From an uncultured Alphaproteobacteria bacterium (GTDB lineage: Bacteria; Pseudomonadota; Alphaproteobacteria; Rhizobiales; Xanthobacteraceae): DNA of 64,000 nucleotides. Below the pieces are notes generated by a model that was not told the DNA's origin, searched no databases, and saw nothing but the letters and a program-made list of their open reading frames with translations. Within the stretch, counting starts at the first letter, position 1. Each line of letters starts with the position of its first letter. Below, piece by piece: positions 16,217-62,576 of this stretch. The translations under genes and the position numbers were made by a program. The stretch lies in NCBI GenBank assembly GCA_963824305.1, contig CAWGOW010000002.1:118413-182412 (forward strand). Direction: 5' to 3'.

Positions 16217-18795
<2,579 letters not shown>

Positions 18796-46962: not shown

Positions 46963-46979
46963 GCCGCAAGGGGCATCAA

Positions 46980-48173
46980 ATGAAGAGAGAGGACAATGGC
47001 GCGGCGCGCGGCGCGTTGGCTGGCATCAAGGTGGTCGATTTCAGCCGGATGCTGCCGGGGCCGTGGTGCACGCAGATGTTGGGTGACCTCGGCGCGGACG
47101 TGATCAAGGTCGAGCAGCCGGAAGTGGGCGATCTCGGCCGGCACAATCCGCCGAACTTCAAGCAGAACAGCGTCTATTTCACCACCGTCAACGGCAACAA
47201 GCGAGGGGTGGCGCTCGATCTGGCCAAAGCGACGGACCGCAAAAAGGCCCATGAACTGATCGCGGAGGCTGATGTTATCGTCGAATCCTATCGGCGCGAT
47301 GTGACGAAACGGCTCGAAATCGACTACGAGACTGCACGAAAGATCAATCCGCGCATCATCTATTGTTCGATTACCGGCTTCGGTCAGACCGGCCCATGGG
47401 CCGGCATTCCCGGTCACGACCTTGTCGTGCAATCGGTAACGGGGGTCATGGGGACGGGGCCTGAAGGCGAGTTGCCGCCGGTGCCCGGCTTTCAAGCCGG
47501 GGATTACGCCGGATCCGCCTATGCCGTCATGGCCATCCTGGCCGCGCTCTACCAACGGCGCGATACCGGAGAAGGCCGCTACCTCGATATCTCGATGTTC
47601 GACTGTCTGTTCAGCATGACCAACGTGATCGCGGGCCCTGCGCTGGCGCGGTTGGGAGGATTTCCCGTCACGACGGTGATGGAGCTCTATGGCGGCAATC
47701 CGCGCTACGCGACATATCCGACCAAGGACGGCAAAGCCGTCGCGGTCTCGTTGCTCGAAGTACGGATCTGGAATTCGTTCTGCAAGCTGATCGACCGTCC
47801 CGATCTGATTCATGCCGACGAAGGTCCGGAACACCGCCACACGGCGCACGGAGCCCGGGCCGCGCTGTATCGGGATGCGATCGGCCAGTTCTGCCTGTCC
47901 AAGGATCGGGACGAACTCGTGCGATGGATGGCGGAACGCAACGTGCCGATCCTGCCTGTTTATACCTCGGATGAGGCCGTCAACAGTGAGCATGTCGCGG
48001 CGCGGGGAATGGTCGAGTGGATCTCGCATCCGACAGAGGGACGCATTCCCACCATTGCCAATCCGTTGCATGCATCGGGTCTAACTAGGGAACGCTCGCC
48101 CGCGCCGAGTCTGGGACAGCACCAGGAAATCGTCGAGAGAGCGGCCGCCGCTTTTGCCATTGAAACCATTTAA
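46980..48173 (+). CDS. Family III CoA-transferase (CaiB/BaiF), single domain
   Basis: 397 aa (LAGIKVVDFSRMLPGPWCTQMLGDLGADVIKVE; Asp in GFQAGDYAGS). Confidence 0.85.
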   Translation: MKREDNGAARGALAGIKVVDFSRMLPGPWCTQMLGDLGADVIKVEQPEVGDLGRHNPPNFKQNSVYFTTVNGNKRGVALDLAKATDRKKAHELIAEADVIVESYRRDVTKRLEIDYETARKINPRIIYCSITGFGQTGPWAGIPGHDLVVQSVTGVMGTGPEGELPPVPGFQAGDYAGSAYAVMAILAALYQRRDTGEGRYLDISMFDCLFSMTNVIAGPALARLGGFPVTTVMELYGGNPRYATYPTKDGKAVAVSLLEVRIWNSFCKLIDRPDLIHADEGPEHRHTAHGARAALYRDAIGQFCLSKDRDELVRWMAERNVPILPVYTSDEAVNSEHVAARGMVEWISHPTEGRIPTIANPLHASGLTRERSPAPSLGQHQEIVERAAAAFAIETI

Positions 48174-48191
48174 GCATTTCGAGGACTCGTG

Positions 48192-49550
48192 ATGAGCGCA
48201 CTTCAGAACGTGACCAACGCCGATGCCATCGCCAATTTCGTCGCCGATGCCTCCTTTGAGAGATTGCCCAAGGATGTGCTTGAGGCGGCGCGGTTCTGCC
48301 TGGTGGACTGGTTCGGTGTTGCGATCGGTGCGGCCAACGAAGAGGCGATCAAGTCCATCAAGCGGGTTGTCAAAGGGTGGAACGCTGCTGGAAAGTCTCC
48401 CGTTCTGCTTGATGGAGAAACGACGCCGGCTGCTGCTGCGCTCGTCAACGGAACGATGGCGCATTGTCTGGACTTCGACGACACCCATGTGGGATCGATT
48501 GCACACTTGACCGGCCCGACCTGGGCCGCAGCATTTGCGGTGGGCACGCATATCGGTGCATCGCCGCGCGACATCGTTGCAGCGTTTGTGTCCGGATTCG
48601 AGGTTGGAGGCAGGCTGGGGTCCGGTGGACTTGGGGTCGCCATCAACGAACGAAATATCCATTCGACCGGCGTATTCGGATGCGTGGGCGCCGCGATCGC
48701 CGCCTCGATCCTGTATGGGTTGAATGCAGATCAGCTAAAAAACGCGATCGGGCTGGCTTCCACGCAGGCCGCCGGATTGACTGGATCGTTCGGCACGACC
48801 GCCAAGCCGTTCCATGCCGGAAAAGCTGCGTTCAATGGCATTCTTGCCGCCGAAATGGCGCGCGAAGGTTTCAATGCCGCAAAAGGGCTGATCGAGATCG
48901 ATGGCGGTCTTGCCGCCGCATTGGTCCAGGATCGGGCGGTCAAGGTTTCTCCGCTCGACTTCGCGGAAGGCTGGGAAATTACCCGCAATACCTTCAAGCC
49001 TTATGCGTCTTGCCTGTTGACGCATCCAGTCATCGACGCGGCACGCGAGCTGCACGAGCGCCGGAGTGGCCGCGAGATCCGGAAAGTCGACGTCCATGTC
49101 GATCCCTTGTGCATCCAGCTTGCCGGAATCTCCAATCCGCAGACGCCTTTTGAAGGGAAGTTCAGCGTCGCATTTTGCGCGGCGCTCGGGCTTGAAGGGA
49201 TCATTCCGTCGCAGACCGAATTCACCACCAGGACGCTGGGCAACAAGGCCATTCGGCACCTGGTCGACGTCGTCGAATTGTTGCCGACGGCAAAAATGGA
49301 AAAGACCGCTGCCACGGTCGAGATCGTTCTTTCGGACGGATCCAAGGAAAGGTGCCACGTGCCGCTGGCACGCGGCAATCCCGGCCGGCCGATGAACTGG
49401 TCTGACATGGAGCGCAAGTTCATCTCGCTTGTCGATCCCGTCATTCCCGGCAAGGGAAAGCAGCTCTTCGACGCCTTGAAGGCGTTCGACGCGTTACAGG
49501 ACCTGTCGCAAATAAATTCAGTTCTGACGGGAAAGGCAGCTCTTAACTAG
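48192..49550 (+). CDS. MmgE/PrpD-family protein (second copy)
   Basis: 452 aa with family blocks (HCLDFDDTH, IHSTGVFG, KPFHAGKAAFNG). ATG 48192 follows GAGGA. Confidence 0.8.
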   Translation: MSALQNVTNADAIANFVADASFERLPKDVLEAARFCLVDWFGVAIGAANEEAIKSIKRVVKGWNAAGKSPVLLDGETTPAAAALVNGTMAHCLDFDDTHVGSIAHLTGPTWAAAFAVGTHIGASPRDIVAAFVSGFEVGGRLGSGGLGVAINERNIHSTGVFGCVGAAIAASILYGLNADQLKNAIGLASTQAAGLTGSFGTTAKPFHAGKAAFNGILAAEMAREGFNAAKGLIEIDGGLAAALVQDRAVKVSPLDFAEGWEITRNTFKPYASCLLTHPVIDAARELHERRSGREIRKVDVHVDPLCIQLAGISNPQTPFEGKFSVAFCAALGLEGIIPSQTEFTTRTLGNKAIRHLVDVVELLPTAKMEKTAATVEIVLSDGSKERCHVPLARGNPGRPMNWSDMERKFISLVDPVIPGKGKQLFDALKAFDALQDLSQINSVLTGKAALN

Positions 49551-49626
49551 GCCGGAGTTAACTTCCTTTGGCCTAGCCAGCTTCGTGTGAGCTTGTTAAG
49601 CACCACGGCATGCCGTCGATATCTCG

Positions 49627-50328
49627 ATGACAGTTGGAGCCATGCGAAAGAAGCTTGAAAAGCCGTCTGCGAAAGAGCAGGGACAATCCAGCTCCCAGGC
49701 GGCTTATGCGTTGCTGATCGCTGAAATCGAAAGCGGCCGGCTCCAGCCGGGCAGCCGATTGCTGGAGGTTGAACTGGCCGAGCGGCTCGGCATCAGCCGG
49801 ACGCCGGTCCGGGAAGCGATCAAGCGTCTTGAGACCCAGGGCCTCGTCAGCCACGAGCCGAACCAGGGCGCGGTGATCACCAAACTCGATCATGCGCGGA
49901 CCGTCGAACTCTACATCGTCCGGGAAGTGCTAGAAGGCGTCGCCGCACGGCAGGCGGCAACTTCCGCGACAGCGCAAGAACTGGAAATTATTCGCCAGAC
50001 GATGGACGAGGATTGGAAATACGTCGACCGCCATGAGAAGCTCGTCATTCGCGACCGGCTGTTTCACAAGCAAATTCAGCTCACGGCACGAAATCGTTTC
50101 CTGGACGATATCCTCAATAACATGCGGATTTCGCAGATCCTTATGACGGGCACGACGCTTGCCGTGAAAGCGCGCCCTACCGCTCTTCTGGAAGAGCATC
50201 AGGCGATCGTGGATGCAATTTTGGCCCGCGATGCCGACAAGGCCGAAGCCGCTGCCCGGTATCACGTACGGCAGGCATTTGCCACCCGGCTGCGGCTGTA
50301 TGCCGACGCGCAACGCGACGGGATATAA
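49627..50328 (+). CDS. GntR-family transcriptional regulator (FadR/FCD subfamily)
   Basis: wHTH (LLEVELAERLGISRTPVREAIKRLETQGLV) plus a C-terminal all-helical FCD-like domain. Confidence 0.85.
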   Translation: MTVGAMRKKLEKPSAKEQGQSSSQAAYALLIAEIESGRLQPGSRLLEVELAERLGISRTPVREAIKRLETQGLVSHEPNQGAVITKLDHARTVELYIVREVLEGVAARQAATSATAQELEIIRQTMDEDWKYVDRHEKLVIRDRLFHKQIQLTARNRFLDDILNNMRISQILMTGTTLAVKARPTALLEEHQAIVDAILARDADKAEAAARYHVRQAFATRLRLYADAQRDGI

Positions 50329-50858: not shown

Positions 50859-51632
50859 TTGGAGGAAATTCGAATCGATCGGCGCGGCAGCGTTGCCCAC
50901 GTCATTCTGGATCGGCCAGCCGTAAAGAATGCCGTGACGCACGCGATGTGGCGCGAATTGGCCGCGATCTTCGCTGGCTTCGCTGGCGATAAAGATGTCC
51001 GAGGGGTGGTCCTCAGGGGGGCGGGTAAAGACTTTTCTGTCGGCGCCGACATTTCCGAATTCGAAAAGATCAGAGACGACAAGCACCAGAGCGCGGCTTA
51101 CGAAGTTGCGGTCGACGCTTGCTCTGGGGCGATCGCCGCGCTTGGAAAGCCAGTCGTAGCGGCTATTTCCGCCTATTGTCTCGGCGGCGGCTGCCACCTC
51201 GCGCTCGCGTGCGATTTCCGCTTCGGTGATCGCAGCGCGACGATGGGCATTCCTTCGGCAAAGCTATCCATCGTGTACGGGGTTCATAGTGTGCAGCGCC
51301 TGTTGGCGATCACGGGCGTATCGAACGCGAAGCGCATTCTCTACTCGGCCGACAGTTATTCTGCCGAGCAGGCTAACTCGATGGGTCTGATCGACGAATT
51401 GCACCAAGACGCGAGCTTGGCCGCTGAGGTGTTTCTAGAGCGGCTGGGGGTAAACGCGCCTCTCTCGATTTCCGGCGCCAAATACATGCTGAACGGCCTT
51501 TCGATGGGAGCTGGCGCGCTCGATCTGGCGGCTGCGCAGCGGCTCATCGATGCCGCCTCCGACAGCGCCGATTTCAAGGAAGGCCGACGGGCGTTTGCTG
51601 AGAAGCGGTCACCACGGTTTCGCGGCGAATAA
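50859..51632 (+). CDS. Enoyl-CoA hydratase/isomerase-family protein (possibly a hydrolase-type member)
   Basis: Crotonase blocks (HVILDRPAVKNAV, GAGKDFSVGADI, AYCLGGGCHLALACD). The probable start is TTG 50859, which has AGAGG 6 nt upstream. The longest ORF starts at TTG 50796. Confidence 0.8.
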   Translation: MEEIRIDRRGSVAHVILDRPAVKNAVTHAMWRELAAIFAGFAGDKDVRGVVLRGAGKDFSVGADISEFEKIRDDKHQSAAYEVAVDACSGAIAALGKPVVAAISAYCLGGGCHLALACDFRFGDRSATMGIPSAKLSIVYGVHSVQRLLAITGVSNAKRILYSADSYSAEQANSMGLIDELHQDASLAAEVFLERLGVNAPLSISGAKYMLNGLSMGAGALDLAAAQRLIDAASDSADFKEGRRAFAEKRSPRFRGE

Positions 51633-51654
51633 GCACCAATTTTGGAGGGCACCG

Positions 51655-52515
51655 ATGAAGCCTGCCAAGTTCGACTATGTTTCGCCGTCGACGATAGGTG
51701 CTGCCATTGAGGCGCTGGTCGCGTCGAACGGTGAGGGTAAGGTGCTGGCCGGAGGGCAAAGTCTGCTGCCGCTCCTAAACTTCCGGATGGCTCGGCCTGC
51801 CGTGCTGGTCGATCTGAATCGCATCGAGGGATTGTCGTACATAGAGGATCGCGGCGACCGTATCGCCATCGGCGCTCTGACGCGCCATCGCGACCTCGAG
51901 CACTCGGCCTTGATCGCCGCAAAGCTGCCCGTGATGTCGGCGGCCATGCGCCATGTCGCGCATCTTGCGATCCGCAATCGCGGCACCATCGGCGGCAGTT
52001 TGTCCCACGCGGATCCGGCAGCCGAACTTCCTATGCTCGCGACTTTCTATGAGGCGGCGATCATCGTGCAGGGCCCGAAGGGCCGTCGAACGATCGCGCC
52101 GGGAGAATTCTTTGTCGACGCGCTGACGAACTGCTTGGAGCCGGAAGAGATCGTGGTGGAAATCGAATTTCCGTTCCTGAAGCAGGACGGTTGGGCGTTC
52201 GAGGAAGTGGCGCGCCGCTTTGGCGACTTTGCGCTTGCGTGCATCGCCATCTCTATTCGCCGCGGTGCGTCCGGAATGGAGGCCGCGCGTGTCGCGGTGA
52301 TGGGGGTAGCGGATACGCCGTTGCGTCTGAGGCAGGTCGAGCAGCAACTTGTCGCGATGGCGATCAACGGACAGACGCCCGATCGATTTTCGGAGATTGT
52401 CGCCTCGCAAGTCTCCCCGAACGGAGACATTCACGGCTCAGCCGAATATCGCAGGCATCTCTTGACGCAACTCGCGAAGCGGGCGTTGCGGACGGCGTTG
52501 GCGATGAAAGGCTGA
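51655..52515 (+). CDS. Molybdenum hydroxylase FAD-binding (medium, CoxM-like) subunit
   Basis: Start at ATG 51655 with a GGAGGG SD. AGGQSLLPLLNFR FAD motif. 286 aa. Confidence 0.88.
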   Translation: MKPAKFDYVSPSTIGAAIEALVASNGEGKVLAGGQSLLPLLNFRMARPAVLVDLNRIEGLSYIEDRGDRIAIGALTRHRDLEHSALIAAKLPVMSAAMRHVAHLAIRNRGTIGGSLSHADPAAELPMLATFYEAAIIVQGPKGRRTIAPGEFFVDALTNCLEPEEIVVEIEFPFLKQDGWAFEEVARRFGDFALACIAISIRRGASGMEAARVAVMGVADTPLRLRQVEQQLVAMAINGQTPDRFSEIVASQVSPNGDIHGSAEYRRHLLTQLAKRALRTALAMKG

Positions 52516-52519
52516 TTCG

Positions 52520-53002
52520 ATGACCATCAAGGTATCCTTGACCGTTAATGGAGAGCCACACGACGTGGCTGCGGTCGAGCCGCGTCTGCTTCTGTCTGAC
52601 TTCCTGCGGGATACGCTCGGTCTTACGGGGACACATGTCGGATGCGAACACGGCGTATGCGGCGCCTGTACCGTCTTGATGAACGGCGACAGCGTGCGCT
52701 CCTGCTTGATGCTGGCCGTCCAGGCCAACGGCGCGGAGATCGTCACCGTCGAGGGGCTCGGTACGCCGGAACAGCTGAATGTGCTGCAGACCGAGTTCCG
52801 TGAGCACCATGGGCTTCAGTGCGGCTTCTGTACGCCGGGCATGCTGATGACAGGTGAGGATCTGCTTCGGAAGTATCCGCTTGCGACCGACGATGACATT
52901 CGGGAGGGCCTTTCTGGCAATCTCTGCCGTTGCACTGGATATCAAAACATCGTCGCGGCGATCAGAAGCGCGGCCGCCAAGCGCACGGAGAAGGCGCCAT
53001 GA
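52520..53002 (+). CDS. Molybdenum hydroxylase [2Fe-2S] (small, CoxS-like) subunit
   Basis: 160 aa with both cluster motifs ([12 protein letters not shown]; QCGFCTPGM...NLCRCTGY). Confidence 0.9.
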
Positions 53003-53760
53003 AACTCAATTTTCTTACAGCTGGCCGCCTTCGGATGAAGAAGAGCATCTACGTGGCCGGCGCCGATCGGACCGAAACCATCGACCTTCCCGTCAGCAGC
53101 GCATTGATCCGGCACAAGCAGGGCAATGTGCTGTTCGATACCGGCTGCCACCCCTCCGTGGTCGATAACGCCGAGGACCGCTGGGGGCCGCTTGCCAAGG
53201 TCATGAATCCGATCATGAACGCGGGCGAGACTTTGCTGCCAAGCCTCACATGCACCGGGCTTGAGCCGGACGACATCGACATTGTCGTGAACTCGCACTT
53301 CCATCCCGACCATTGCGGCTGCAACCAATTCTTCAGGAAGGCGACGATCCTCGCGCACACGAGGGAAATCGAAGCGGCAAACGCTCCGGGTGCCGAAAAT
53401 GCGGGCTATCTTAGGGCCGACTGGAATACCGGACAGGGTATCGAGGCCGTAGCCGGAGAGAGGGATCTGTTCGGCGATTCCAGCGTCGTGCTGTTGCCGT
53501 TGCCGGGTCACACGCCTGGAACACTCGGTGCGCTGGTCGGCCTGGATCGTGACGGTCAGTTCTTGCTTGCTTCCGACTCGGTGAGTCTTCGACAGAACCT
53601 AGATGCCGACGCAGCGCCTCGAAACACCTGGAACGTCGACCAGCAGCTGAAGACCTTCGATGAAGTCAGGCGTATCGAGAGGGGAGGCGCTACCGTGATT
53701 TGCGGCCATGACGACCAGCAATGGCGGGTCTTGCGCAAGGGAAGCGAAGGCTATGAGTAG
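52999..53760 (+). CDS. Metallo-beta-lactamase-fold lactonase (AttM/AiiB-type N-acyl-homoserine-lactonase family)
   Basis: Start at ATG 52999, overlapping the coxS stop (ATGA). SHFHPDHCG (HxHxDH), PGHTPG, ASD and CGHD metal ligands. 253 aa. Its stop lies 5 nt after the coxL start. Confidence 0.8.
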   Translation: MKLNFLTAGRLRMKKSIYVAGADRTETIDLPVSSALIRHKQGNVLFDTGCHPSVVDNAEDRWGPLAKVMNPIMNAGETLLPSLTCTGLEPDDIDIVVNSHFHPDHCGCNQFFRKATILAHTREIEAANAPGAENAGYLRADWNTGQGIEAVAGERDLFGDSSVVLLPLPGHTPGTLGALVGLDRDGQFLLASDSVSLRQNLDADAAPRNTWNVDQQLKTFDEVRRIERGGATVICGHDDQQWRVLRKGSEGYE

Positions 53761-56155
53761 CGATCGGATCGCTCATCCATCCGATGTGTTGCGGCCGCGG
53801 AACGTCGGCGCGCCCATCAAGCGCACGGAGGACCCGCGCCTTCTGACCGGCAACGGCGAGTACACGGCCGACCGCAACCCCGACCGAGCGCTGCATCTCG
53901 CCTTCCTTCGTAGCGGTCAGCCTCACGCCCGCATCAAACGGATCGACACCGCGGCGGCGCTGGCTGCGCCAGGCGTGCTCGCCGTGCTTACGGCCGAGGA
54001 TATCGCGGGAGACTTTCAACCCGTGATCCCGTTCTCACGGATGGCGAACTACTATGCGACGCCGATCGTGCCGCTTGCCTCCAGGAAGGTTCGCTATGTC
54101 GGCGAGGCGGTCGCGGCCGTCGTCGCGACGTCTCGCTACCTAGCAGAGGACGCGCTGGAGCTCATTGAAGTCGAATACGAATCTCTCGGCGCTGTCTCGC
54201 GCGCGGAGTTAGCCGTCGCGGACGATGCACCGCTCCTGCACGAAGAAGCCGGCACCAACGTCCTGATCGCGCGCGAATTCAAGAAGGGGGACGTCGCCGC
54301 AGACTTGAAGGCCGCGGCGGTCAGGGTAGGCGGGCGTTTCGAAATGACCCGCAAGGCGCCGCTTGCGATGGAGCCGCGAAGCTACGCTGCGGAATACGAA
54401 AAGCGCCGCGATGCGATCACTCTCTACACCTCGTCGAACATTCCCGGAATCGTCCGTGACGCCATTTCAGAGTCGCTCGGCCTGCCGGGCCATCGTCTCC
54501 GCGTCGTAGCTCCAGACGTCGGTGGAAGCTTCGGTTCGAAGGGTTCTCTCTACCCTGAAGAGTTGCTGATTTGCATCGCGGCGCGCAAGCTTCGCCGGTC
54601 GGTGAAGTGGACGGCGGACCGGCTTGAGGACGTCAGCAGCAGCAGCCAGGCATTCGGCGAAATCGTCGATGCGGAAATGGGGTTCGACGCGAACGGTATC
54701 GCAACCTCGCTGCAGGCCGATGTTATCGGGGACGTCGGAGCTTATTCGATCTATCCCTGGACTTGCGGACTTGAACCGGTTCAGGTCGTGAGCTTCCTGC
54801 CAGGGCCCTACAAGATCCGGTCGTATCGGGGCGCGGTGCGTGGTGTCGCGACCTGCAAGCCGCCGACCGGTCCGTATCGTGGCGTTGGCCGACCCATTTC
54901 GACCTTCGTTGCCGAGCGTCTGATGGACCTCGGCGCCAAGGCCCTCGGCATCGATCCTCTAGAGATCAGACGCCGCAATCTGGTCCGCGCCGAAGAGTTT
55001 CCGTATCGGATCGCTTCCGGGATTATCTGGGACAAGACCGGATTCGTCGAATGCCTCGACGCCGCCGCGAAAGCCGTCGGCTATGAGCAGCTTCGCAAAG
55101 AACAAGCCGAAGCGCGCAAGCAGGGGCGGCTGTTCGGCGTCGGCATCGCTACCTACGCCGAATTGACCGGCATCGGTTCGAGGATTGCGGTGGCGCCGGG
55201 CATGCCGATCAATACCGGCTCGGAGACGGCAAAGATCACGATCAACTCGACGGGTGCGATCACTGCCGCTTTCGGAGTCGCCTCTCACGGTCAAGGCCTC
55301 GAGACGACGTTGGCCCAGATCGTGGCCGATGATCTCGGCGCCCGGTTCGAGGATGTGCGCGTTATCCAGGGCGACAGCGACCAGGTGCCGATGTCGACCG
55401 GAACCTACGCGAGCCGTAGCGCAGTTCTGGGCGGCGGTGCGGCGAAGCACGCCTCGACGATATTGCAGGCGAAGATCAAGCAAGTCGCGTCGCATCTTCT
55501 CGAGGCCAATGCGGCCGACATCGAAGTGACCGATGGCAAGGCCACCGTACTCGGAACGGACCGCACCGTGAATTTCAAGCAGATCGCCAAGGCCGTCTAC
55601 GCCGACATGAAGACCTTACCAATGGACGCTCGCGAGGAGTTGAGCGCGACCTACACCTACGATCCGATCAACGGGACAACCGCGGCGGCCACCCACATCG
55701 CGGCAGTGGAGGTCGACCCGGTTAGCTGCTTCGTGCGGATCCTGAAATTTGTCGTCGCCGAAGACTGCGGCCGGATCATCAACCCGATGATCGTCGACGG
55801 TCAGGTGCACGGTGGTGTGGCGCAAGGCATCGGCGCTGCTCTGCTGGAGGAACTGATCTACGACGAGGATGGCCAACTCCTGACCGCGAGCCTCGTCGAC
55901 TACCTGATCCCTTCCGCCCCCGAGGTGCCGCTGATGGATGTCGTGCATATCGAGAGCGAGTCCGCGGTCGCCGGCGGCTTTCGGGGAATGGGCGAGGGCG
56001 GCACGATCGGCGCGCCGGCTGCAATTGCGAACGCGATCGCCGATGCGTTGTCGCCGCTCGACATCGATGTCTCGATTCTTCCGATGACGCCGGAGCGCAT
56101 CTTCAAATTGATGGAACAAGCCAGATTAAAATCAAGAGGAAAAGTAGATGAGTGA
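53753..56155 (+). CDS. Molybdopterin-binding large subunit of a xanthine dehydrogenase/CoxL-family hydroxylase (not a form-I CO dehydrogenase)
   Basis: Start at ATG 53753 (MSSDRIAHPSDVLRPRNVGAPIKRTEDPRLLTG). 800 aa. The loop reads GPYRGVGRP rather than the VAYRCSFR of CODH. The catalytic Glu context FRGMGEGGTIGAP is present. Confidence 0.88.
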   Translation: MSSDRIAHPSDVLRPRNVGAPIKRTEDPRLLTGNGEYTADRNPDRALHLAFLRSGQPHARIKRIDTAAALAAPGVLAVLTAEDIAGDFQPVIPFSRMANYYATPIVPLASRKVRYVGEAVAAVVATSRYLAEDALELIEVEYESLGAVSRAELAVADDAPLLHEEAGTNVLIAREFKKGDVAADLKAAAVRVGGRFEMTRKAPLAMEPRSYAAEYEKRRDAITLYTSSNIPGIVRDAISESLGLPGHRLRVVAPDVGGSFGSKGSLYPEELLICIAARKLRRSVKWTADRLEDVSSSSQAFGEIVDAEMGFDANGIATSLQADVIGDVGAYSIYPWTCGLEPVQVVSFLPGPYKIRSYRGAVRGVATCKPPTGPYRGVGRPISTFVAERLMDLGAKALGIDPLEIRRRNLVRAEEFPYRIASGIIWDKTGFVECLDAAAKAVGYEQLRKEQAEARKQGRLFGVGIATYAELTGIGSRIAVAPGMPINTGSETAKITINSTGAITAAFGVASHGQGLETTLAQIVADDLGARFEDVRVIQGDSDQVPMSTGTYASRSAVLGGGAAKHASTILQAKIKQVASHLLEANAADIEVTDGKATVLGTDRTVNFKQIAKAVYADMKTLPMDAREELSATYTYDPINGTTAAATHIAAVEVDPVSCFVRILKFVVAEDCGRIINPMIVDGQVHGGVAQGIGAALLEELIYDEDGQLLTASLVDYLIPSAPEVPLMDVVHIESESAVAGGFRGMGEGGTIGAPAAIANAIADALSPLDIDVSILPMTPERIFKLMEQARLKSRGKVDE

Positions 56156-56897
56156 CTTGAAAGGACGCGTGGCCCTCGTGACCGGGGGCGGCCGGGACGT
56201 GGGCGCGGGCATCTCCAAGATGCTTGCGAAGCATGGTGCAAGCATTGCCGTCAATTATCACAGTTCAAAGGCCGAGGCGGAAGCTGTCGTTGCCGAGATC
56301 CAAAAGGCGGGCGGCAACGCGAAGGCCTACCAAGCCGACATCGCGGATGCGGACATCGTCAGGAAGATGATCGCGGACATCAAGAACGATTTTGGCAGAC
56401 TGGACATCCTCATCAACAACGCCGGCTTGGTATTGCGCAAGCGTTTCAGCGAGAGCACGCCCGAGGACTGGAAAAAGCAGATCGACACTTGCCTTTACGG
56501 TGCGCTGAACTGTTCTCATAGCGCAGGTCCATTACTCGAGGCGTCGGGCCACGGACGTATCATCTCGATCATGGGCGACTCCTCCAGGGTCGGTGAATCC
56601 GGGCTGGCGCTTGGAGCCGCGGCGCGCGCGGGCACTATCGCGCTGATGAAGTCGTTGGCACGTGAATGGGGTCGTTCGGGCGTGACTGCAAACTCGATCT
56701 CGCTTGGTCTTATCGAGACGGCGCACGACAAGTCCTGGGTCGACGCGAACCGCGAAAAGCTGGTCAAGGCTTACGCGATTCGCCGGCTCGGGCTGCCGTC
56801 CGACGTGGCGCCGCTGGTTACATTGCTCGCGTCGGATGCGGGTGGCTGGATCACCGGGCAGGTGATCAGCATCAATGGTGGATACAGTATGGTCTAG
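56148..56897 (+). CDS. SDR-family oxidoreductase (FabG-like)
   Basis: TGGGRDVG cofactor motif. 249 aa. Its start overlaps the coxL end by 8 nt. Confidence 0.85.
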   Translation: MSDLKGRVALVTGGGRDVGAGISKMLAKHGASIAVNYHSSKAEAEAVVAEIQKAGGNAKAYQADIADADIVRKMIADIKNDFGRLDILINNAGLVLRKRFSESTPEDWKKQIDTCLYGALNCSHSAGPLLEASGHGRIISIMGDSSRVGESGLALGAAARAGTIALMKSLAREWGRSGVTANSISLGLIETAHDKSWVDANREKLVKAYAIRRLGLPSDVAPLVTLLASDAGGWITGQVISINGGYSMV

Positions 56898-56909
56898 GGG
56901 AATACGGCG

Positions 56910-58451
56910 ATGATGGACGTTGATTTGATCGCTCCAATTGCGCTGCTGATGAATCGGCACCTGAAGAACCGGCCCGAGCAGATCGCTTACTCGGATTCGG
57001 TCAGTTCCGTAACGTACAAGCAGCTGGCGGACAACACGGCGACCATCGCCTCCAACCTGGCAAAGGCGGGACTTCGCGAGGGCGACCGCGTCGCCCTCTA
57101 CCTGCCGAATAGTGTCGACTCGATCGAAGCGTGCTTTGCCGGGCTCAGGGCCGGGGCCGTGATCGTCCCGATAAGCTATGATGCGGCTGAAGGCGAGATC
57201 AGCTACCGGCTCACCGATGCCGATTGCAGCGTTATCGTCACGACCGCCGAAAGAAAAGAATTGGTGACGAAGATCTCGCGGGTAGCCAATATTGCTCCAC
57301 GAATGATCTTCGCCGGCCATGGTGCAGAGCAAGCGGGCACGGCGCTGGCTAATCTGGCGGAGCATGCCGACACCAAGCCGCTCGATCCCGAGGATATCGA
57401 TCGCTCGTCCTTTGTCATTTACACATCGGGCACCACCGGACGCGCCAAGGGCGTGCTTCTTTCGATACGCGGTATGCTTTGGATAGCGGCTTCCTGTTGG
57501 GCTCCGATCTGCGGGCTTAGCGCAAAGGACGTCGTTCTCTCGCCGCTACCGTTGTTTCATTCGTATGGTCTCAATCTGTCAGTGCTCAGCGTTCTTGCGA
57601 TCGGCGCAAGCGAACACCTCATGGAGCGGTTCTCTCCACAGCTCGCTTTGGACCTGATGCAGTCGGGCAGATACACCATCTTCCCCGGCGTCCCGACCAT
57701 GTTTCACTATCTGCTGCATCGGGCGCAGGAGACCCGGGTCGAGCGGCTGGGCAATATCCGGCTTTGTATCTCAGCCGGCGCCATCATGCCGGCAACGTTG
57801 AACCGAGCCTTCGAGGAACGCTTCAAGACACCGTTGCTCGATGGATACGGCATCACCGAGACGTCCACCATGGTCACCATGAATTGGCTCAGCGGCACGC
57901 GGCCCAGCGGCTCGTGCGGATTGCCGGTGCCGGGGCTCGCGGTACGCATCGTCGATCCCAACACGCTCGAAGATGTTCCGATTGGTGGCGAGGGCGAACT
58001 GATCGTCCGCGGACCAAACCTCATGCAGGGCTATCATAACAAGCCGACGGAGACTGCGTCGGCGCTCCGCAAGGGGTGGTATCACACGGGAGATCTCGCC
58101 AAGTCGGACCCGGCCGGCTACCTGACCATCACGGGCCGGATCAAGGAACTGATCATCCGGGGCGGTCAGAACATCGCGCCTGCCGAGATCGAGGAAGTCG
58201 TCGTTCGGCATCCCCAGGTCAAGGACTGTGCGGTTGTCGGTGTGAAGCATGCGACGCTGGGGGAGGTGCCTTGCCTCTTCGTCGTCGCGAACGGAAATGA
58301 GTTGGATGTTTCGTCTCTGATGGATCATTGCAGGGCGCATTTGTCTGCCTACAAGATTCCGGAGGCGACCCATCTCGTCGGAGAAATTCCTCGTACCGGC
58401 TCCGGAAAGATCATGCGCTTCAAGCTGGCCGAAGCCTTGAGCAAATCGTGA
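56910..58451 (+). CDS. AMP-forming acyl-CoA synthetase/ligase (ANL superfamily)
   Basis: 513 aa with the AMP motif YTSGTTGRAKGV, plus GYGITETS, TGDLA and GKIMRFKL. Confidence 0.88.
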   Translation: MMDVDLIAPIALLMNRHLKNRPEQIAYSDSVSSVTYKQLADNTATIASNLAKAGLREGDRVALYLPNSVDSIEACFAGLRAGAVIVPISYDAAEGEISYRLTDADCSVIVTTAERKELVTKISRVANIAPRMIFAGHGAEQAGTALANLAEHADTKPLDPEDIDRSSFVIYTSGTTGRAKGVLLSIRGMLWIAASCWAPICGLSAKDVVLSPLPLFHSYGLNLSVLSVLAIGASEHLMERFSPQLALDLMQSGRYTIFPGVPTMFHYLLHRAQETRVERLGNIRLCISAGAIMPATLNRAFEERFKTPLLDGYGITETSTMVTMNWLSGTRPSGSCGLPVPGLAVRIVDPNTLEDVPIGGEGELIVRGPNLMQGYHNKPTETASALRKGWYHTGDLAKSDPAGYLTITGRIKELIIRGGQNIAPAEIEEVVVRHPQVKDCAVVGVKHATLGEVPCLFVVANGNELDVSSLMDHCRAHLSAYKIPEATHLVGEIPRTGSGKIMRFKLAEALSKS

Positions 58452-58459
58452 TTGGACGA

Positions 58460-59566
58460 TCAGTCGACCGAACGCGGCCCCAAGGCGCCGAACGATTCCG
58501 GATCGTAGGTCAGCCGATAGCGCATGTCCGCGGCGACGATCGGCTGTTTGCAGCGATCGCAGTTCACCGACGGTTGGAAATCGTGTCCACATTTGAGATG
58601 GGTGAGTATCAACGGAGGCTTGCCCTTGGAGAGCCAACGGTCGCCCCATTGCAGCATCGCGATGAAGGGGCCATAGAGGTCCAACCCCATGTCGGTGAGA
58701 AGATACTCGTACCGGTCCGGGGAACTTTGGTACTGCCTGCGATGAAAGACGCCGCTGGCAACCAGGCGATTGAGCCGATCGGTCAGGATGTTCGGCGCGA
58801 TCGCGAGTTCGGTCAGGATCTTGTCGTAGCGACGGTTGCCGAAAAAACCCTCGCGGACAACCATGAAGCTCCACTTGTCGCCGATGATTTCAAGCGCGCG
58901 CGAAACCGAACTTGGGCGGCCTTGCACGAACCGGCTGCCGTCGGAAGGACGCCTGGTGTTGCGGCCGGGTTTGGCAAGACATCGTCCGGCACCGGGGCCA
59001 TCGCGGTATTTGGCATCGCGGGCGCTGACAGCTTCGCCACAATCGGAGCAGGCGACGATGGGGTGGCTGTCGCAACCACAGACGCCGTGGATCAGCGTCA
59101 GCGGACGAGGCTTGTCCTTGAAGAGCCAGCGGTCTCCGAATTGCATCAGCGCGATGAAGCTCGGATAGAGATCAAATCCCATCTTCGTCAGGCGATATTC
59201 CTTGCGTCGCGAAGATCCGGGCGCGACCTGTCGGAAGATGGCGAGTTGGGTAAGCTTTCTGAGCCGATCGGTCAGGGTCGCCCGCGGAATGCCGAGCGCG
59301 GAGCGGAACGCTTCGAACGTTTGGGTGCCGAAGAACGCCTCGCGGATGATCAGGAATGCCCAGGCGTCGGAGACGATGTCCAGCGTGCGAGCGACCGAAC
59401 AATTGCGCTCGGTGCGGACGATGCCGGTTCGCCCCGCGGGCGCCACCGATCTTGGCTTCAGCGGGGATTTGGTCGTTTTTTTTATTTTGGCGGCGGCGGG
59501 CATCCCGACCTGTCCATTACGCGGCAGCCACGACGGCAGCCTTCGAAAGTCGCGCAGCTTTACCAC
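58460..59566 (-). CDS. Tandem-duplicated HxlR (DUF24)-type winged-helix regulator; each half carries a C-terminal His/Cys (H-x2-C...C-x2-C) module
   Basis: Half 1: CSVARTLDIVSDAWAFLIIRE...GDRWLFKDKPRPLTLIHGVCGCDSHPIVACSDCGEAV. Half 2: VSRALEIIGDKWSFMVVRE...GDRWLSKGKPPLILTHLKCGHDFQPSVNCDRCKQPI. The start is GTG 59566 or, more likely, ATG 59503. Confidence 0.75.
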   Translation of the reverse strand: MVKLRDFRRLPSWLPRNGQVGMPAAAKIKKTTKSPLKPRSVAPAGRTGIVRTERNCSVARTLDIVSDAWAFLIIREAFFGTQTFEAFRSALGIPRATLTDRLRKLTQLAIFRQVAPGSSRRKEYRLTKMGFDLYPSFIALMQFGDRWLFKDKPRPLTLIHGVCGCDSHPIVACSDCGEAVSARDAKYRDGPGAGRCLAKPGRNTRRPSDGSRFVQGRPSSVSRALEIIGDKWSFMVVREGFFGNRRYDKILTELAIAPNILTDRLNRLVASGVFHRRQYQSSPDRYEYLLTDMGLDLYGPFIAMLQWGDRWLSKGKPPLILTHLKCGHDFQPSVNCDRCKQPIVAADMRYRLTYDPESFGALGPRSVD

Positions 59567-59576
59567 AACGGTACGA

Positions 59577-59639
59577 TTGACTAGCCGGAAATATCAGTCT
59601 AGTTACGCATGTAAGTAAGTCTAGTTATGCTAGTAATAA
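59577..59639 (+). promoter_or_regulatory. Candidate promoter/operator: TTGACT-N13 followed by two tandem 22-bp direct repeats (AGTCTAGTTACGCATGTAAGTA / AGTCTAGTTATGCTAGTAATAA)
   Basis: Read directly in the HxlR/SBP divergent intergenic region. The repeats lie at 59596-59617 and 59618-59639 and are 17/22 identical. The same motif occurs at 50773-50794. Confidence 0.65.
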
Positions 59640-59680
59640 AAGCAAACTATTAGGCATAAAAACGTTTAGGGAGGAATGTC

Positions 59681-60907
59681 ATGAAGCTGAGGATCGAAAG
59701 CCTCCTGATCGCGTCGGCGGCGATCTTGATGGTCAACTGCGGCGCCGGAGCGCAGACCACGAAGATCTCGGATGACGTCGTCAAGATCGGCGTGCTGACG
59801 GATATGTCGGGACAATTCTCGCACGAATCCGGAGAAGGCTCGGTGACGGCGATCAGGATGGCCGTTGAGGATTTCGGCGGCAAGGTTCTCGGAAAGCCGA
59901 TCGAGGTGATCGTCGCCGACCATCAGAACAAGCCGGATACCGCTTCCGCACTGGCGCGCAAATGGTTCGACGTGGACCACGTCGATATGATCGGCAACCT
60001 GATCAATTCGTCGATCGCGCTCACGGTTGCCGGGCTCGCGAAAGAAAAGAACCGGATCGCTATCATCAACGGCTCTGGGTCGTCCCGTCTCACCGGTGAT
60101 GCGTGCACGCCAAATAGTATTCACTATGCCTACGATACCTATGCTCTCGCGCGCGGAACCGGCGCCGCTTTGGCCAAGGCGGGCAAGAAGTCGTGGTACT
60201 TCCTGACGGCAGACTACGCGTTCGGGCACGCGCTCGAAGCCGACACCTCAGCGGTCGTGAAGGCGATGGGCGGCGAGGTTCTCGGGTCGACCCGTTATCC
60301 GCCTGACTCGTTCGATCAGTCCTCTTTCCTTCTGCAGGCGCAGTCGTCGAAAGCGCAAGTCGTGGCGCTGGCCGGCTCCGGTAATGTGCTGGTGAATTCG
60401 ATCAAGTCGGCGCAGGAATTCGGCATTCCGACCGGCGGCCAGACCCTCGCCGGTCTACTTGTCTGGATCACCGACGTCAGGAGCCTTGGACTTTCGGCAG
60501 CGCAGGGACTGGTTCTCACTAACGCGTTCTACTGGGATCGCGATGATGAAACCCGGGCCTGGTCTAGGCGCTTTTACGAGCGGACGAAGAAGATGCCGCA
60601 CATGGGCGATGCGGGCGACTATTCGTCGACAATGCACTATCTGAAGGCCATCGAAGCGGCCGGTACAGATGAGGCGCAAGCCGTCATGAGCAAGATGCGC
60701 GAGTTGCCGATCAACGATTTCTTCGCGAAGAACGGCCGGGTTCGCGAGGATGGCCGCATGGTGCACGACATGTACGTGTATGAAGTGAAAAAGCCTTCCG
60801 AGTCCAAGGGCGACTGGGACTTCTACAAGCTTCGCGAGGTGATCCCTGGGGACCAGGCTTTTCGTCCGCTGAAGGACAGCGCCTGTCCCCTGGTCAAAAA
60901 GGGCTGA
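59681..60907 (+). CDS. ABC transporter substrate-binding protein, Liv type (orphan SBP) with signal peptide
   Basis: 408 aa. GGGAGG SD. The signal peptide ends at GAGA-QT. It is a paralogue of the SBP at 42093-43313. Confidence 0.82.
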   Translation: MKLRIESLLIASAAILMVNCGAGAQTTKISDDVVKIGVLTDMSGQFSHESGEGSVTAIRMAVEDFGGKVLGKPIEVIVADHQNKPDTASALARKWFDVDHVDMIGNLINSSIALTVAGLAKEKNRIAIINGSGSSRLTGDACTPNSIHYAYDTYALARGTGAALAKAGKKSWYFLTADYAFGHALEADTSAVVKAMGGEVLGSTRYPPDSFDQSSFLLQAQSSKAQVVALAGSGNVLVNSIKSAQEFGIPTGGQTLAGLLVWITDVRSLGLSAAQGLVLTNAFYWDRDDETRAWSRRFYERTKKMPHMGDAGDYSSTMHYLKAIEAAGTDEAQAVMSKMRELPINDFFAKNGRVREDGRMVHDMYVYEVKKPSESKGDWDFYKLREVIPGDQAFRPLKDSACPLVKKG

Positions 60908-60986
60908 TGTTGGCGGATCCGTTTCGCCGTTAATTTGTACGCAATGCCGGCCGCCGCGAAACGGGGCCGTTTCTTAGGAGGCACAG

Positions 60987-62543
60987 ATGGATCAGGAAAC
61001 AATCGCCAGAGGCTTGGCGCCGAAATCCCGCAAGCCGATCAGGTCGGGCTCCGAGTATATCGACAGCCTGAGACACCGGAATCTTAAGGTCTATCTGATG
61101 GGCGAAATGGTCGACGAGCCCGTCGATCATCCGATCATCAGGCCTTCGATCAACGCGGTCGCGCAGACCTACGACCTTGCAAACGAAAATCCGGAACTTG
61201 CATCTGCCGTGTCGCCCTTTACTGGTGAGCGCGTAAATCGGTTTCTTCACATCTCGGCGAGCCCTGCCGATCTCGTCATGCAGAACAAGATGCAACGGCG
61301 CTTGGGGCAGCTGACCGGCACATGTTTCCAGCGTTGCGTCGGCATGGATGCGCTCAACTCGCTGCATTCGGTCTCGTACGATTTGGATGAAAAGTTTGGG
61401 ACCGAGTACCATCGGCGCTTCACGCAATTCCTCACCCAGATGCAAAAGGCGAATTTTGTAATCGGCGGTGCAATGACCGACGTGAAGGGTGATCGCGGAA
61501 AATCGCCTTCGCAGCAGGCCGATCCGGACCTCTTTGTGCATGTCACCCGACGCACCGCAGATGGTGTCTTCATCAGCGGCGCCAAAGCGCATCAGACTGG
61601 CTGCCTGAATTCACACTGGTTGATCGTGATGCCGACGATGCGGTTGGAGACTGCAGACAAGAATTACGCGATCGTTGGCGCGATACCGGTTGATGCCGAA
61701 GGCATCACCTACATCTATGGCCGTCAATCCTGTGACACCCGCAGCGCCGAAGGCGGCGATATCGATGTCGGGAACGCGCAATTTTCGGGCCAAGAAGCGA
61801 TGATCATCTTCGAGGACGTCTTTATTCCGCGAGAGCTCGTCTTCCTCGACGGGGAGTACGAATTTGCAGCCACACTAGTCGAGCGATTTACATGCTATCA
61901 CCGCCGCAGCTACGTCTGCAAAACCGGCGTTGGCGATGTCCTGATCGGCGCCGCAGCCACCATCGCCGATTACAACGGTGTCGAGCGGGTCTCACATATC
62001 AAAGACAAGCTCGTCGAAATGACGCATCTCAACGAGACGATCTACGGCACCGGCATTGCCGCGAGCCATCAGGGCATGAAAATGAAATCGGGCGCGTACC
62101 TGCCCGACGAGATGCTAGCTAATGTTTGCAAGCACCATGTCACGCGCTTGCCTTACGAAATTGGCCGGTTGGCGCAGGATCTTGCCGGCGGCTTGATGGT
62201 TACGCTGCCATCCGAGCTGGAGCTGCGACACGAAACCGTAGGTCCGATGATCGAAAAATATCTCAAGGGGCGCCCCGAAGTCGCGACCGAAGACCGCATA
62301 CGCATTTTGCGTTTGGTGGAGAACATGACGCTGGGCAGAAACGCGGTAGGATATCTCACGGAGTCCATGCATGGCGCTGGATCTCCGCAAGCGCAACGGA
62401 TTCAGATCGCGCGCTCAATGCAAATCGAATTCAAGAAAGAGTTGGCGAAAACGTTGGCCGGTATCGCGGCCGCTTCGCGCGAAGAGATATCGGACGACCT
62501 CTCCATGTACATGACACGAGTATTCGCGCCCGTCCGCAATTGA
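60987..62543 (+). CDS. 4-hydroxybutyryl-CoA dehydratase/vinylacetyl-CoA delta-isomerase family protein (AbfD-like; HpaB-fold FAD/[4Fe-4S] enzyme)
   Basis: 518 aa. From memory it is collinear with Clostridium aminobutyricum AbfD (DHPIIRPSINAV, CFQRCVGMDA with C-x3-C, GAMTDVKGDR, YGRQSCDTR, YHRRSYVCKTGVGDV with His...Cys, HGAGSPQAQRI). Confidence 0.8.
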   Translation: MDQETIARGLAPKSRKPIRSGSEYIDSLRHRNLKVYLMGEMVDEPVDHPIIRPSINAVAQTYDLANENPELASAVSPFTGERVNRFLHISASPADLVMQNKMQRRLGQLTGTCFQRCVGMDALNSLHSVSYDLDEKFGTEYHRRFTQFLTQMQKANFVIGGAMTDVKGDRGKSPSQQADPDLFVHVTRRTADGVFISGAKAHQTGCLNSHWLIVMPTMRLETADKNYAIVGAIPVDAEGITYIYGRQSCDTRSAEGGDIDVGNAQFSGQEAMIIFEDVFIPRELVFLDGEYEFAATLVERFTCYHRRSYVCKTGVGDVLIGAAATIADYNGVERVSHIKDKLVEMTHLNETIYGTGIAASHQGMKMKSGAYLPDEMLANVCKHHVTRLPYEIGRLAQDLAGGLMVTLPSELELRHETVGPMIEKYLKGRPEVATEDRIRILRLVENMTLGRNAVGYLTESMHGAGSPQAQRIQIARSMQIEFKKELAKTLAGIAAASREEISDDLSMYMTRVFAPVRN

Positions 62544-62576
62544 CAATCGGAACGCGTTCTCGCAACGGTGTGGCTT

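Follow-up and report, generated by a model that had tools for sequence, protein, structure and literature searches.

A predicted Nitrosopumilus-type 4-hydroxybutyryl-CoA dehydratase in a putative two-operon regulon of Bradyrhizobium

We analyzed a stretch of 64,000 nucleotides (hereafter, the window) that carries an abfD-type gene near its end, flanked by genes for a periplasmic solute-binding protein (SBP), a CoxG-family protein and an MFS transporter. A second operon on the same strand, encoding a molybdenum (Mo) hydroxylase and several other enzymes, lies upstream, and a divergent regulator gene separates the two (Table 1). The surroundings are those of a phototroph, as the preliminary description of this DNA had stated: acsF (7810-8799, ~52 kb upstream of abfD) and Calvin-cycle genes (RuBisCO large subunit at 17800-18723, ~42 kb upstream) were found in the same window, and pufLM just upstream of it.

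Table 1. Genes and sequence elements of the abfD locus, in window coordinates
Feature	Position	Strand	Evidence or remark
Third copy of operator-like core AGTCTASTTAYGCNNGTAA	50773..50791	+	upstream of Mo-hydroxylase operon
Crotonase-superfamily protein, His replacing first catalytic Glu (GGGCHLA)	50859..51632	+	PDB search and alignment
FAD (CoxM-like) and 2Fe-2S (CoxS-like) subunits of Mo hydroxylase	51550..53002	+	Pfam
Metallo-beta-lactamase-fold lactonase, between small and large subunit genes	52999..53760	+	Pfam Lactamase_B
Mo-binding large subunit	53708..56155	+	Pfam
SDR oxidoreductase and AMP-forming acyl-CoA ligase	56148..58451	+	Pfam, NCBIfam; PDB search for the ligase
Divergent regulator, two HxlR-type winged-helix domains	58460..59566	-	Pfam HxlR, two stretches
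Two tandem copies of 19-nt operator-like core AGTCTASTTAYGCNNGTAA	59596..59636	+	upstream of SBP-abfD operon
Periplasmic solute-binding protein (Peripla_BP_6), first gene of abfD operon	59681..60907	+	Pfam E 2e-110
abfD-type 4-hydroxybutyryl-CoA dehydratase / vinylacetyl-CoA isomerase, Nitrosopumilus-like (O2-tolerant-type) clade (predicted)	60987..62543	+	518 aa; Pfam HpaB_N and HpaB, PDB matches, residues, trees
CoxG-family (SRPBCC) protein	62568..63017	+	Pfam COXG E 1e-35
MFS transporter (CynX-like)	63017..64000	+	Pfam MFS_1; cut by window end, 392 aa in full

The preliminary description placed abfD in an operon with the SBP, CoxG and MFS genes. All three neighbours are as it described them; however, the MFS gene, which overlaps the coxG stop codon by 1 nt, is a variable member of the operon and not a conserved one. 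Among related loci we found it only in the three closest (L007, L009 and L011), and it is absent from plasmid pUSDA31-1. The SBP gene was conserved directly upstream of abfD in ~20 loci. No ABC permease or ATPase genes lie beside it, and a PDB search for hints to its ligand returned, as closest structures (3I09 first), structural-genomics entries without informative name or ligand information. An Rfam search over 58000-64000 matched no RNA element, and the predicted folding of the SBP-abfD spacer did not exceed that of shuffled sequences (z 0.5), 142 of 200 of which folded equally well; this gave no support for an attenuator. The base composition of abfD (GC 56%, GC3 69%) showed no clear signal of foreign origin when compared with the genome (GC 60.5%) and the neighbouring genes (GC3 68-77%).

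In the upstream operon, the closest structure to the Mo-binding large subunit was quinoline 2-oxidoreductase (E 1e-165), and those closest to the lactonase were AHL lactonases (E 5e-30 to 1e-27). The His of the crotonase-superfamily protein is conserved in its orthologues, whereas Glu is present in the window's other crotonase. Since this protein lacks the catalytic Glu, we rejected a plain route through the cluster from 4-hydroxybutyrate via crotonyl-CoA and 3-hydroxybutyryl-CoA to acetoacetyl-CoA.

The abfD reading frame fills exactly the interval given in Table 1, stop codon included, with AGGAGG 5 nt ahead of its ATG. Its product has a two-domain HpaB-like architecture (PF11794, 296 bits; PF03241, 237 bits) and is collinear with the solved 4-hydroxybutyryl-CoA dehydratases, matching in a PDB search the Nitrosopumilus enzyme (6VJR, E 1e-240, residues 18-514) and, as had been claimed from the sequence, clostridial AbfD (1U8V, E 1e-176, residues 20-493). 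The [4Fe-4S] ligands proposed earlier, a C-x3-C in CFQRCVGMDA (residues 113-122) and a His...Cys pair in YHRRSYVCK (residues 304-312), were likewise borne out: in the HMMER alignment to 1U8V, C113, C117, H305 and C311 are all conserved, aligning to AbfD Cys99, Cys103, His292 and Cys299. The suspected shortening of the His-Cys spacing by one residue is real (H-x5-C vs H-x6-C, YHRQSYGGCK, in AbfD), and the same deletion is found in 6VJR and in all 52 aligned members of the Nitrosopumilus-type clade. Furthermore, R104, Q115, T204, E270, Y309, K312, E459 and A464 are identical to AbfD R90, Q101, T190, E257, Y296, K300, E455 and A460, which we take, from the mutagenesis of AbfD, to be active-site or FAD-contact residues. 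The T194/E260 pair of the Nitrosopumilus maritimus enzyme is described in the preprint of DeMirci et al. The cluster-linked Bradyrhizobium copies showed only 8 specific substitutions, all conservative, besides an N-terminal Met column, and none at known active-site positions, in favour of an unaltered substrate. Judged by its structural matches and these residues, the gene product is a genuine member of the radical 4-hydroxybutyryl-CoA dehydratase family.

We placed the protein on phylogenies, in which crenarchaeal references and clades carry no labels. Thaumarchaeota and aerobic bacteria of many phyla formed one clade, with the clostridial type outside (100 SH-aLRT in an 89-row tree, 100/100 in a 40-row tree), and within it the Bradyrhizobium protein fell in a bacterial sister group (97/93), apart from the archaeal sequences. 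It was 69% identical over 498 residues to a proxy that is itself 96% identical to the Nitrosopumilus enzyme, and ~57% identical to a clostridial-type representative. With N. maritimus Nmar_0207 (6VJR) it shares identical ligand motifs, TGTCFQRCVGMD and CYHRRSYVCKTG, as well as the indels of the clade: the H-x5-C spacing, the absence of the 8-residue AbfD insert and a C-terminal extension. Unlike Nmar_0207, it has ~10 extra N-terminal residues, and its gene lies in a regulated, catabolic-looking operon, while Nmar_0207 adjoins the gene of the ADP-forming 4-hydroxybutyrate-CoA synthetase of a CO2-fixation cycle. With AbfD of Clostridium aminobutyricum (1U8V) it has in common the fold, the cofactor ligands, the catalytic residues and presumably the chemistry; the clostridial enzyme, however, retains the insert, lacks the C-terminal tail, is O2-sensitive and takes part in GABA fermentation. 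By its phylogenetic position and these indels, the Bradyrhizobium protein is a member of the Nitrosopumilus-type clade, in which the one enzyme studied tolerates O2. Genome-based reports of homologues, from Bradyrhizobiaceae and from bacteria with bacteriochlorophyll, already exist.

In the preprint of DeMirci et al., L77, T102, R441 and N442 of the N. maritimus enzyme are held responsible for tunnel closure, the proposed basis of its O2 tolerance; the basis of this account is one structure, simulations and variants. The corresponding residues of the Bradyrhizobium protein are the same (L87, T112, R451 and N452). The last three are identical in 52 of 52 aligned clade members, and L87 is replaced by V or T in two. 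Clostridial-type representatives in our alignment have C or T at position 87 and T-G or A-G at 451/452. For the four tunnel positions of Clostridium AbfD, the preprint gives small residues (A73, S98, A447 and S448). One constriction position differs, with Ser267 in the Bradyrhizobium protein vs Gly in Nitrosopumilus. Stability of activity in air has been measured for the archaeal enzyme only; the clade and tunnel residues of the Bradyrhizobium enzyme suggest that it may be O2-tolerant too. The preliminary description had set an O2-sensitive, AbfD-type enzyme beside an organism equipped for aerobic or microaerobic phototrophy. The AbfD-type placement stood, but the tension between the two did not: with its membership of the Nitrosopumilus-type clade and its four tunnel-closing residues, the protein no longer appears as a "strictly anaerobic" radical enzyme at odds with an aerobic phototroph.

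Several observations connect the abfD operon with the Mo-hydroxylase operon. The operator-like core has only three matches in the 6.45-Mb genome at ≤3 mismatches, all ahead of these two operons; copies of it also precede the SBP gene at 19 further loci, most of which have them in tandem. In every locus that bears the cluster, the gene for the double-HxlR regulator adjoins the SBP gene. The full gene set and layout are kept in ~19 other loci, mostly of Bradyrhizobium; in L028/L208 both operons are fused in a single direction, and in B. elkanii the whole two-operon set resides on the conjugative plasmid pUSDA31-1. The pairing of AbfD with CoxG, which had been left as unexplained, can now be accounted for, since CoxG co-occurs with the Mo hydroxylase: of 18 related loci with the Mo enzyme, 16 carry coxG, as against none of ~60 loci lacking the cluster-type Mo enzyme. 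CoxG, one of seven encoded in the genome, thus probably serves the upstream Mo hydroxylase as an accessory protein, tracking this enzyme and not AbfD. Because the putative operator is common to both operons, the layout is conserved and CoxG tracks the Mo enzyme, we think it likely that SBP-abfD-coxG belongs with the Mo-hydroxylase/lactonase/SDR/CoA-ligase operon in one two-operon regulon, under the double-HxlR regulator and its putative operator.

The reading that we favour, and hold with good though not full confidence, is that this regulon includes a functional Nitrosopumilus-type FAD/[4Fe-4S] 4-hydroxybutyryl-CoA dehydratase that makes crotonyl-CoA from a ring-opening product. The conversion would most likely be that of 4-hydroxybutyryl-CoA. 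By the mechanism established for AbfD, the 4-hydroxyl of the substrate would bind the His-ligated iron, and the thioester, once deprotonated at C2, would give up one electron to FAD. In the radical so formed the C3 proton would be acidic; hydroxide would depart and crotonyl-CoA would form, with no net redox change. Leu87, Thr112, Arg451 and Asn452 would shut off the tunnels to the cluster, as their counterparts do in the archaeal enzyme. The companion operon could supply the preceding steps through its CoA ligase, three-subunit Mo hydroxylase (with CoxG), lactonase, SDR and atypical crotonase-family protein. An O-heterocyclic or lactone carboxylate may be activated and then hydroxylated to a lactone, which the lactonase would open to a 4-hydroxyacyl-CoA; this may be reduced and/or decarboxylated to 4-hydroxybutyryl-CoA, and AbfD would then feed crotonyl-CoA into ordinary beta-oxidation. 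We propose, tentatively, that AbfD would in this manner be the exit step of an aerobic pathway not described before. One candidate for the starting compound is a furan-3-carboxylate-like acid, as its CoA ester, proceeding via an alpha-carboxy-gamma-butyrolactone that is opened, reduced and decarboxylated.

The proposed pathway has partial parallels among known systems. It resembles the hmfABCDE 2-furoyl-CoA pathway by enzyme class (a CoA ligase, a CoxLMS-type hydroxylase and a crotonase-superfamily protein), but the Bradyrhizobium locus adds the lactonase, SDR, AbfD and CoxG. The route for 2-furoate has 2-oxoglutarate as its end product and involves no 4-hydroxyacyl-CoA, and therefore the substrate of the Bradyrhizobium pathway must differ. 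The conversion of a 4-hydroxyacyl-CoA into a 2-enoyl- or 3-hydroxyacyl-CoA for beta-oxidation is shared with bacterial LvaABC, acting on levulinate, and with mammalian ACAD10/11; in contrast, these employ a kinase and an acyl-CoA-dehydrogenase-like eliminase and consume ATP, while AbfD would need one radical step and no ATP. A literature search for work linking AbfD with lactonases or furoyl-CoA-type hydroxylases found nothing.

Across the genus, abfD was present in 23 of 300 sampled Bradyrhizobium species, and its contexts vary. In L008 it is accompanied by a different CoxMSL, an alpha/beta hydrolase, an SBP, an ABC transporter and a GST, and in L012 by two ACADs, an ECH2-type protein, an MBL lactonase and an SBP; we count these two loci as cases in which abfD joined a set of ring-opening enzymes independently, in support of the favoured reading. 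Other Bradyrhizobium copies (L019, L029, L030 and L035) and all copies from other phyla are in unrelated contexts, so the enzyme is not tied to Mo hydroxylases in general. Copies without the Mo enzyme would fit an alternative in which AbfD serves general 4-hydroxybutyrate, GABA or succinic semialdehyde catabolism as a mere neighbour of the Mo-hydroxylase operon, the SBP importing a 4-hydroxybutyrate-like acid that is then activated and dehydrated. In other phyla we found no conserved neighbourhood, the recurrent genes being those for Zn-alcohol dehydrogenases (8 loci), aldehyde dehydrogenases (5), enoyl-CoA hydratases (4) and an HMG-CoA-reductase-like protein (4); the first three are typical of such metabolism. 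We nevertheless regard this alternative as unlikely, given that the operator is shared with the Mo-hydroxylase operon and occurs nowhere else in the genome, that the two operons are co-conserved, fused in L028 and together on the plasmid, and that the only CoA ligase of the locus is in the Mo-hydroxylase operon.

The physiological reaction might also be another one, either the O2-insensitive isomerisation of vinylacetyl-CoA to crotonyl-CoA or the loss of water from a substituted 4-hydroxyacyl-CoA, for example 4-hydroxyvaleryl-CoA. AbfD enzymes hold both activities in one site, 6VJR was deposited as a "vinylacetyl-CoA delta-isomerase", and ring opening could give 3-enoyl or branched products; however, all dehydratase residues and Fe-S cluster ligands are kept, and no active-site substitution separates the protein from the archaeal enzyme, whose substrate is 4-hydroxybutyryl-CoA, which makes a different reaction quite improbable. 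That the gene marks CO2 fixation of the 3-hydroxypropionate/4-hydroxybutyrate type, or runs in reverse from crotonyl-CoA to 4-hydroxybutyryl-CoA, is very improbable in our view. Wang et al. 2014 listed all enzymes of the cycle in Bradyrhizobium sp. STM 3843, Afipia and Oligotropha, and Garritano et al. 2022 put the cycle forward for Luminiphilus, which contains bacteriochlorophyll, both on the basis of genomes; against this, abfD here is in a regulator-controlled operon with uptake proteins and adjoins a catabolic operon, its distribution in the genus is patchy, it is plasmid-borne in B. elkanii, and RuBisCO is encoded in the same window. Finally, an HpaB-type flavin-dependent aromatic hydroxylase, suggested by the Pfam names HpaB_N and HpaB and by orthologues annotated as "4-hydroxyphenylacetate 3-hydroxylase family protein", is already refuted by the family scores (TIGR02309, 157 bits vs a cut-off of 480; TIGR02310, 91 vs 885), by matches to HpaB structures only at E 1e-35 or weaker, and by the four true HpaB-like genes of the genome, which are 19-21% identical, lack the Cys/His ligands and form an outgroup with 100% support, far from our protein among the 4-hydroxybutyryl-CoA dehydratases. 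Neither of the two outcomes that the preliminary description had named as refuting it, loss of the cluster ligands or a grouping with HpaB-type monooxygenases, was observed.

The design of the air-tolerant enzyme of ammonia-oxidising archaea is, by these data, widespread among aerobic bacteria. In recent literature, bacterial 4-hydroxybutyryl-CoA dehydratases are still called oxygen-sensitive, and tolerant ones are sought in archaea; the bacterial members of the tolerant-type clade are ready-made candidates for use in aerobic hosts. Surveys that take the thaumarchaeal enzyme as a marker of archaeal CO2 fixation can also be misled by bacterial proteins, which reach 68-70% identity to it. For soil Bradyrhizobium, the two-operon cluster, conserved and in part plasmid-borne, suggests a degradation pathway that is so far uncharacterised. 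If AbfD is indeed its exit enzyme, a radical 4-hydroxybutyryl-CoA dehydratase would for the first time have a physiological role in aerobic bacterial catabolism, one that offers an ATP-free alternative to the kinase-dependent routes of 4-hydroxyacid degradation.

Pfam assigns the protein encoded by abfD in the window no more than the generic domains HpaB_N and HpaB. In a search against solved structures it matched the 4-hydroxybutyryl-CoA dehydratase (4HBD) of Nitrosopumilus maritimus (6VJR) at E 1e-240 over residues 18-514, and AbfD of Clostridium aminobutyricum (1U8V) at E 1e-176; the best HpaB-type oxygenase structure reached 1e-35 at most, and the protein fell far under the cut-offs of the NCBIfam HpaB models. 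The genome has this single abfD-type gene and four true HpaB-like genes, the latter 19-24% identical to the window protein. The AbfD-type homologue named in the preliminary description is thus confirmed, and an identity as an HpaB oxygenase is refuted.

Features of the abfD region, with positions in the window
Feature	Position	Strand	Remarks
abfD-type 4HBD gene	60987-62543	+	intact 518-codon ORF with a good ribosome-binding site
Solute-binding protein (SBP) gene	59681-60907		heads the abfD operon
First-operon gene set			crotonase-family protein, CoxM- and CoxS-like subunits, MBL lactonase, CoxL-like subunit, SDR, AMP-forming CoA ligase
Crotonase-superfamily protein	50859-51632		GGGCHLA, His replacing the first catalytic Glu; usual second Glu replaced by Ser or Ala
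Other crotonase	46180-46962		Glu at the position of that His
Upstream block, a separate acyl-CoA pathway	44972-50328		ACAD, crotonase, CoA-transferase III, MmgE/PrpD-family protein, GntR regulator

AbfD numbering was carried onto the window protein through a HMMER alignment, which showed the four cluster ligands conserved as C113, C117, H305 and C311. Eight further active-site residues (R104, Q115, T204, E270, Y309, K312, E459 and A464) correspond to AbfD R90, Q101, T190, E257, Y296, K300, E455 and A460, and we take their functions to be those described for AbfD. The His-Cys spacing is indeed one residue short of AbfD, as had been suspected (H-x5-C against H-x6-C). The Nitrosopumilus enzyme has an identical CYHRRSYVCK, so a cluster can be bound despite the shorter loop. 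A T194/E260 pair has been described for the archaeal enzyme (bioRxiv 10.1101/2020.02.05.935528).

The Nitrosopumilus enzyme has a half-life in air of over 10 h, and its oxygen tolerance has been ascribed to two closed tunnels behind the cluster (DeMirci et al., bioRxiv 10.1101/2020.02.05.935528). The closing residues are L77, T102, R441 and N442, with A73, S98, A447 and S448 as AbfD counterparts; the window protein has L87, T112, R451 and N452. Thaumarchaeal sequences for phylogeny were obtained by scanning metagenomes with an AT-rich-codon pattern for the peptide CFQRCVGMDAMN, which yielded about 60 marine contigs with a GC content of 31-34%. Among the proteins encoded there, L159 matches the 6VJR chain at about 96% identity and has the native numbering. 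With L159 the window protein shares 69% identity, against 57% with a representative of the clostridial type (best structure match 1U8V). In maximum-likelihood trees rooted with the HpaB genes of the same genome, and with crenarchaeal references unlabelled, it groups not with HpaB but in a clade of Thaumarchaeota and bacteria (support 100 by SH-aLRT with 89 rows, 100/100 with 40 rows), with the clostridial-type representatives outside. Within this clade the Thaumarchaeota (95/90) are sister to the bacteria (97/93) in the sampled sequences, the bacterial rows having been picked as best matches to the query. All 52 clade members have the ligands, H-x5-C, the eight other active-site residues and the tunnel T, R and N; L87 is replaced by V or T in two. 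The reading of the protein as an AbfD-type enzyme is thereby supported, and the tension previously noted between a radical enzyme and aerobic life would be resolved, because the protein belongs to this clade. Bacterial 4HBDs on metagenome contigs (L087-L166) share 68-70% identity with their thaumarchaeal counterparts and do not differ from them in the ligand and tunnel motifs.

The genome (6.45 Mb, 60.5% GC) was assigned to Bradyrhizobium from its closest homologues, and its description as an aerobic or microaerobic phototroph holds: pufLM, acsF and RuBisCO lie on the same contig as abfD. Relatives of the protein at 72-94% identity occur in Bradyrhizobium, Woeseiaceae, Lentisalinibacter, Burkholderiales, Planctomycetota, Acidobacteriota, Chloroflexota, Verrucomicrobiota, Bacteroidota and Gemmatimonadota. 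Its distribution within the genus of the window is patchy, with 23 of 300 sampled species carrying it; at the family level it is present in 10 of 200 genomes. Other genera of the family have a second abfD subclade with 63-65% identity (L204 and L209, from G066 and G102, and copies in G074, G120 and G156); in L204 and L209 the tunnel residues T, L and RN are again present. Two relatives are possibly decaying copies, one with an internal TGA (G021:C41:3670-5127) and one truncated with a TAA (G432:C9:79668-80510). Such genes have been recorded from the genomes of Bradyrhizobium sp. STM 3843, Afipia and Oligotropha (PMC4195664) and of bacteriochlorophyll-containing Luminiphilus (PMC9802188), and aerobe-dominated bacterial clades and Plesiocystis are mentioned in the structural preprint (bioRxiv 10.1101/2020.02.05.935528); the bare finding of an abfD-type gene in an aerobic bacterium is therefore of an already known kind.

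The gene is the second of SBP-abfD-coxG(-MFS), an operon divergent from a regulator gene with two HxlR domains; the first operon lies upstream and converges on that regulator gene. The nearest structures are AHL lactonases for the MBL lactonase and quinoline 2-oxidoreductase for the CoxL-like subunit. Several observations indicate that the two operons belong together. The gene order of the whole set is maintained in about 19 other loci, mostly Bradyrhizobium, and one Rhizobiales genome carries both operons as a unidirectional fusion (SBP-abfD-coxG-ECH-coxM-coxS-MBL-coxL-SDR-ligase). In B. elkanii the complete cluster is plasmid-borne, on the conjugative pUSDA31-1 (roughly 295 kb; L210, NZ_CP126027.1, 182762-194886), where RefSeq labels abfD only as [quoted passage not shown]; three sister plasmids have it too. 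Finally, a 19-nt operator-like motif has exactly three genome copies at ≤3 mismatches: a tandem pair ahead of the SBP gene and a single copy ahead of the first operon. The motif also precedes the SBP gene of 19 further loci, most of which have it in tandem. The pairing of CoxG with abfD, previously called unexplained, is accounted for by CoxG tracking the Mo enzyme (the CoxLMS-type hydroxylase): it occurs in 16 of 18 loci with that enzyme and in none lacking a cluster-type one. The MFS gene, found in the three closest loci only, ends the abfD operon in this genome, where no ABC permease or ATPase genes lie near the SBP gene.

Other settings of the gene were found in related genomes. A related MAG (L008:30-11557) has a second copy, 94% identical, as the last gene of an operon with CoxM-CoxS-CoxL (30-47% identical to the window's subunits), an alpha/beta hydrolase, an SBP with ABC permeases and ATPases forming a full transporter, and a GST. 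In Bradyrhizobium sp. dw_411 (L012:4763-11566) abfD follows an ACAD, the same atypical crotonase-family (ECH2-type) protein as in the first operon, an MBL lactonase, a second ACAD and an SBP, alongside a divergent CoA-transferase III, a Zn-ADH and a ligase; Mo hydroxylase, SDR and CoxG are all absent from this locus. From these architectures, abfD recurs in this lineage downstream of an oxidising step and a ring- or ester-opening hydrolase. The His-for-Glu replacement in the first-operon crotonase-family protein is kept in orthologues (including L012:5956-6670 and L208:12590-13321). A plain hydratase role for this protein is doubtful; decarboxylation, hydrolysis or ring opening may be its reaction instead.

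Only eight substitutions, all conservative, set the cluster-linked AbfDs apart from the other clade members, and no known active-site position is among them, so the substrate is most likely 4-hydroxybutyryl-CoA itself. A speculative but chemically coherent scheme uses every cluster enzyme: a furan-3-carboxylate-like acid would be activated by the ligase and hydroxylated beside the ring oxygen by the Mo enzyme to a butenolide or lactone, which the lactonase would open to a product with a gamma-hydroxyl and an alpha-carboxyl group; reduction by the SDR and decarboxylation by the crotonase-family protein would then give 4-hydroxybutyryl-CoA, which AbfD would dehydrate to crotonyl-CoA. A 4-hydroxyacyl-CoA cannot arise from the 2-furoate pathway as such. 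General 4-hydroxybutyrate catabolism with no link to the Mo enzyme finds some support in the abfD contexts of other phyla, but conflicts with the operator common to both operons, and we consider it improbable. We give slightly less credence still to an isomerase-only role or an altered substrate. The catabolic setting, the patchy, plasmid-borne distribution and the presence of RuBisCO make a role in CO2 fixation unlikely.

Three loci of Gammaproteobacteria (L040, L044, L048) have an aldehyde dehydrogenase directly downstream of abfD, and eight (L049 and seven others) have a Zn-dependent alcohol dehydrogenase nearby, neighbours that fit succinic semialdehyde or 4-hydroxybutyrate metabolism. In four loci of other phyla (L050:9616-10782 and three more) an HMG-CoA-reductase-family gene lies 2-5 genes away, and its product might reduce an acyl-CoA, perhaps succinyl-CoA, to the alcohol.

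Marker surveys that equate abfD/hcd with archaeal CO2 fixation could catch heterotrophic bacteria. Still of interest are the conserved, uncharacterised cluster and the air-tolerant-type bacterial clade, whose breadth has been under-appreciated.
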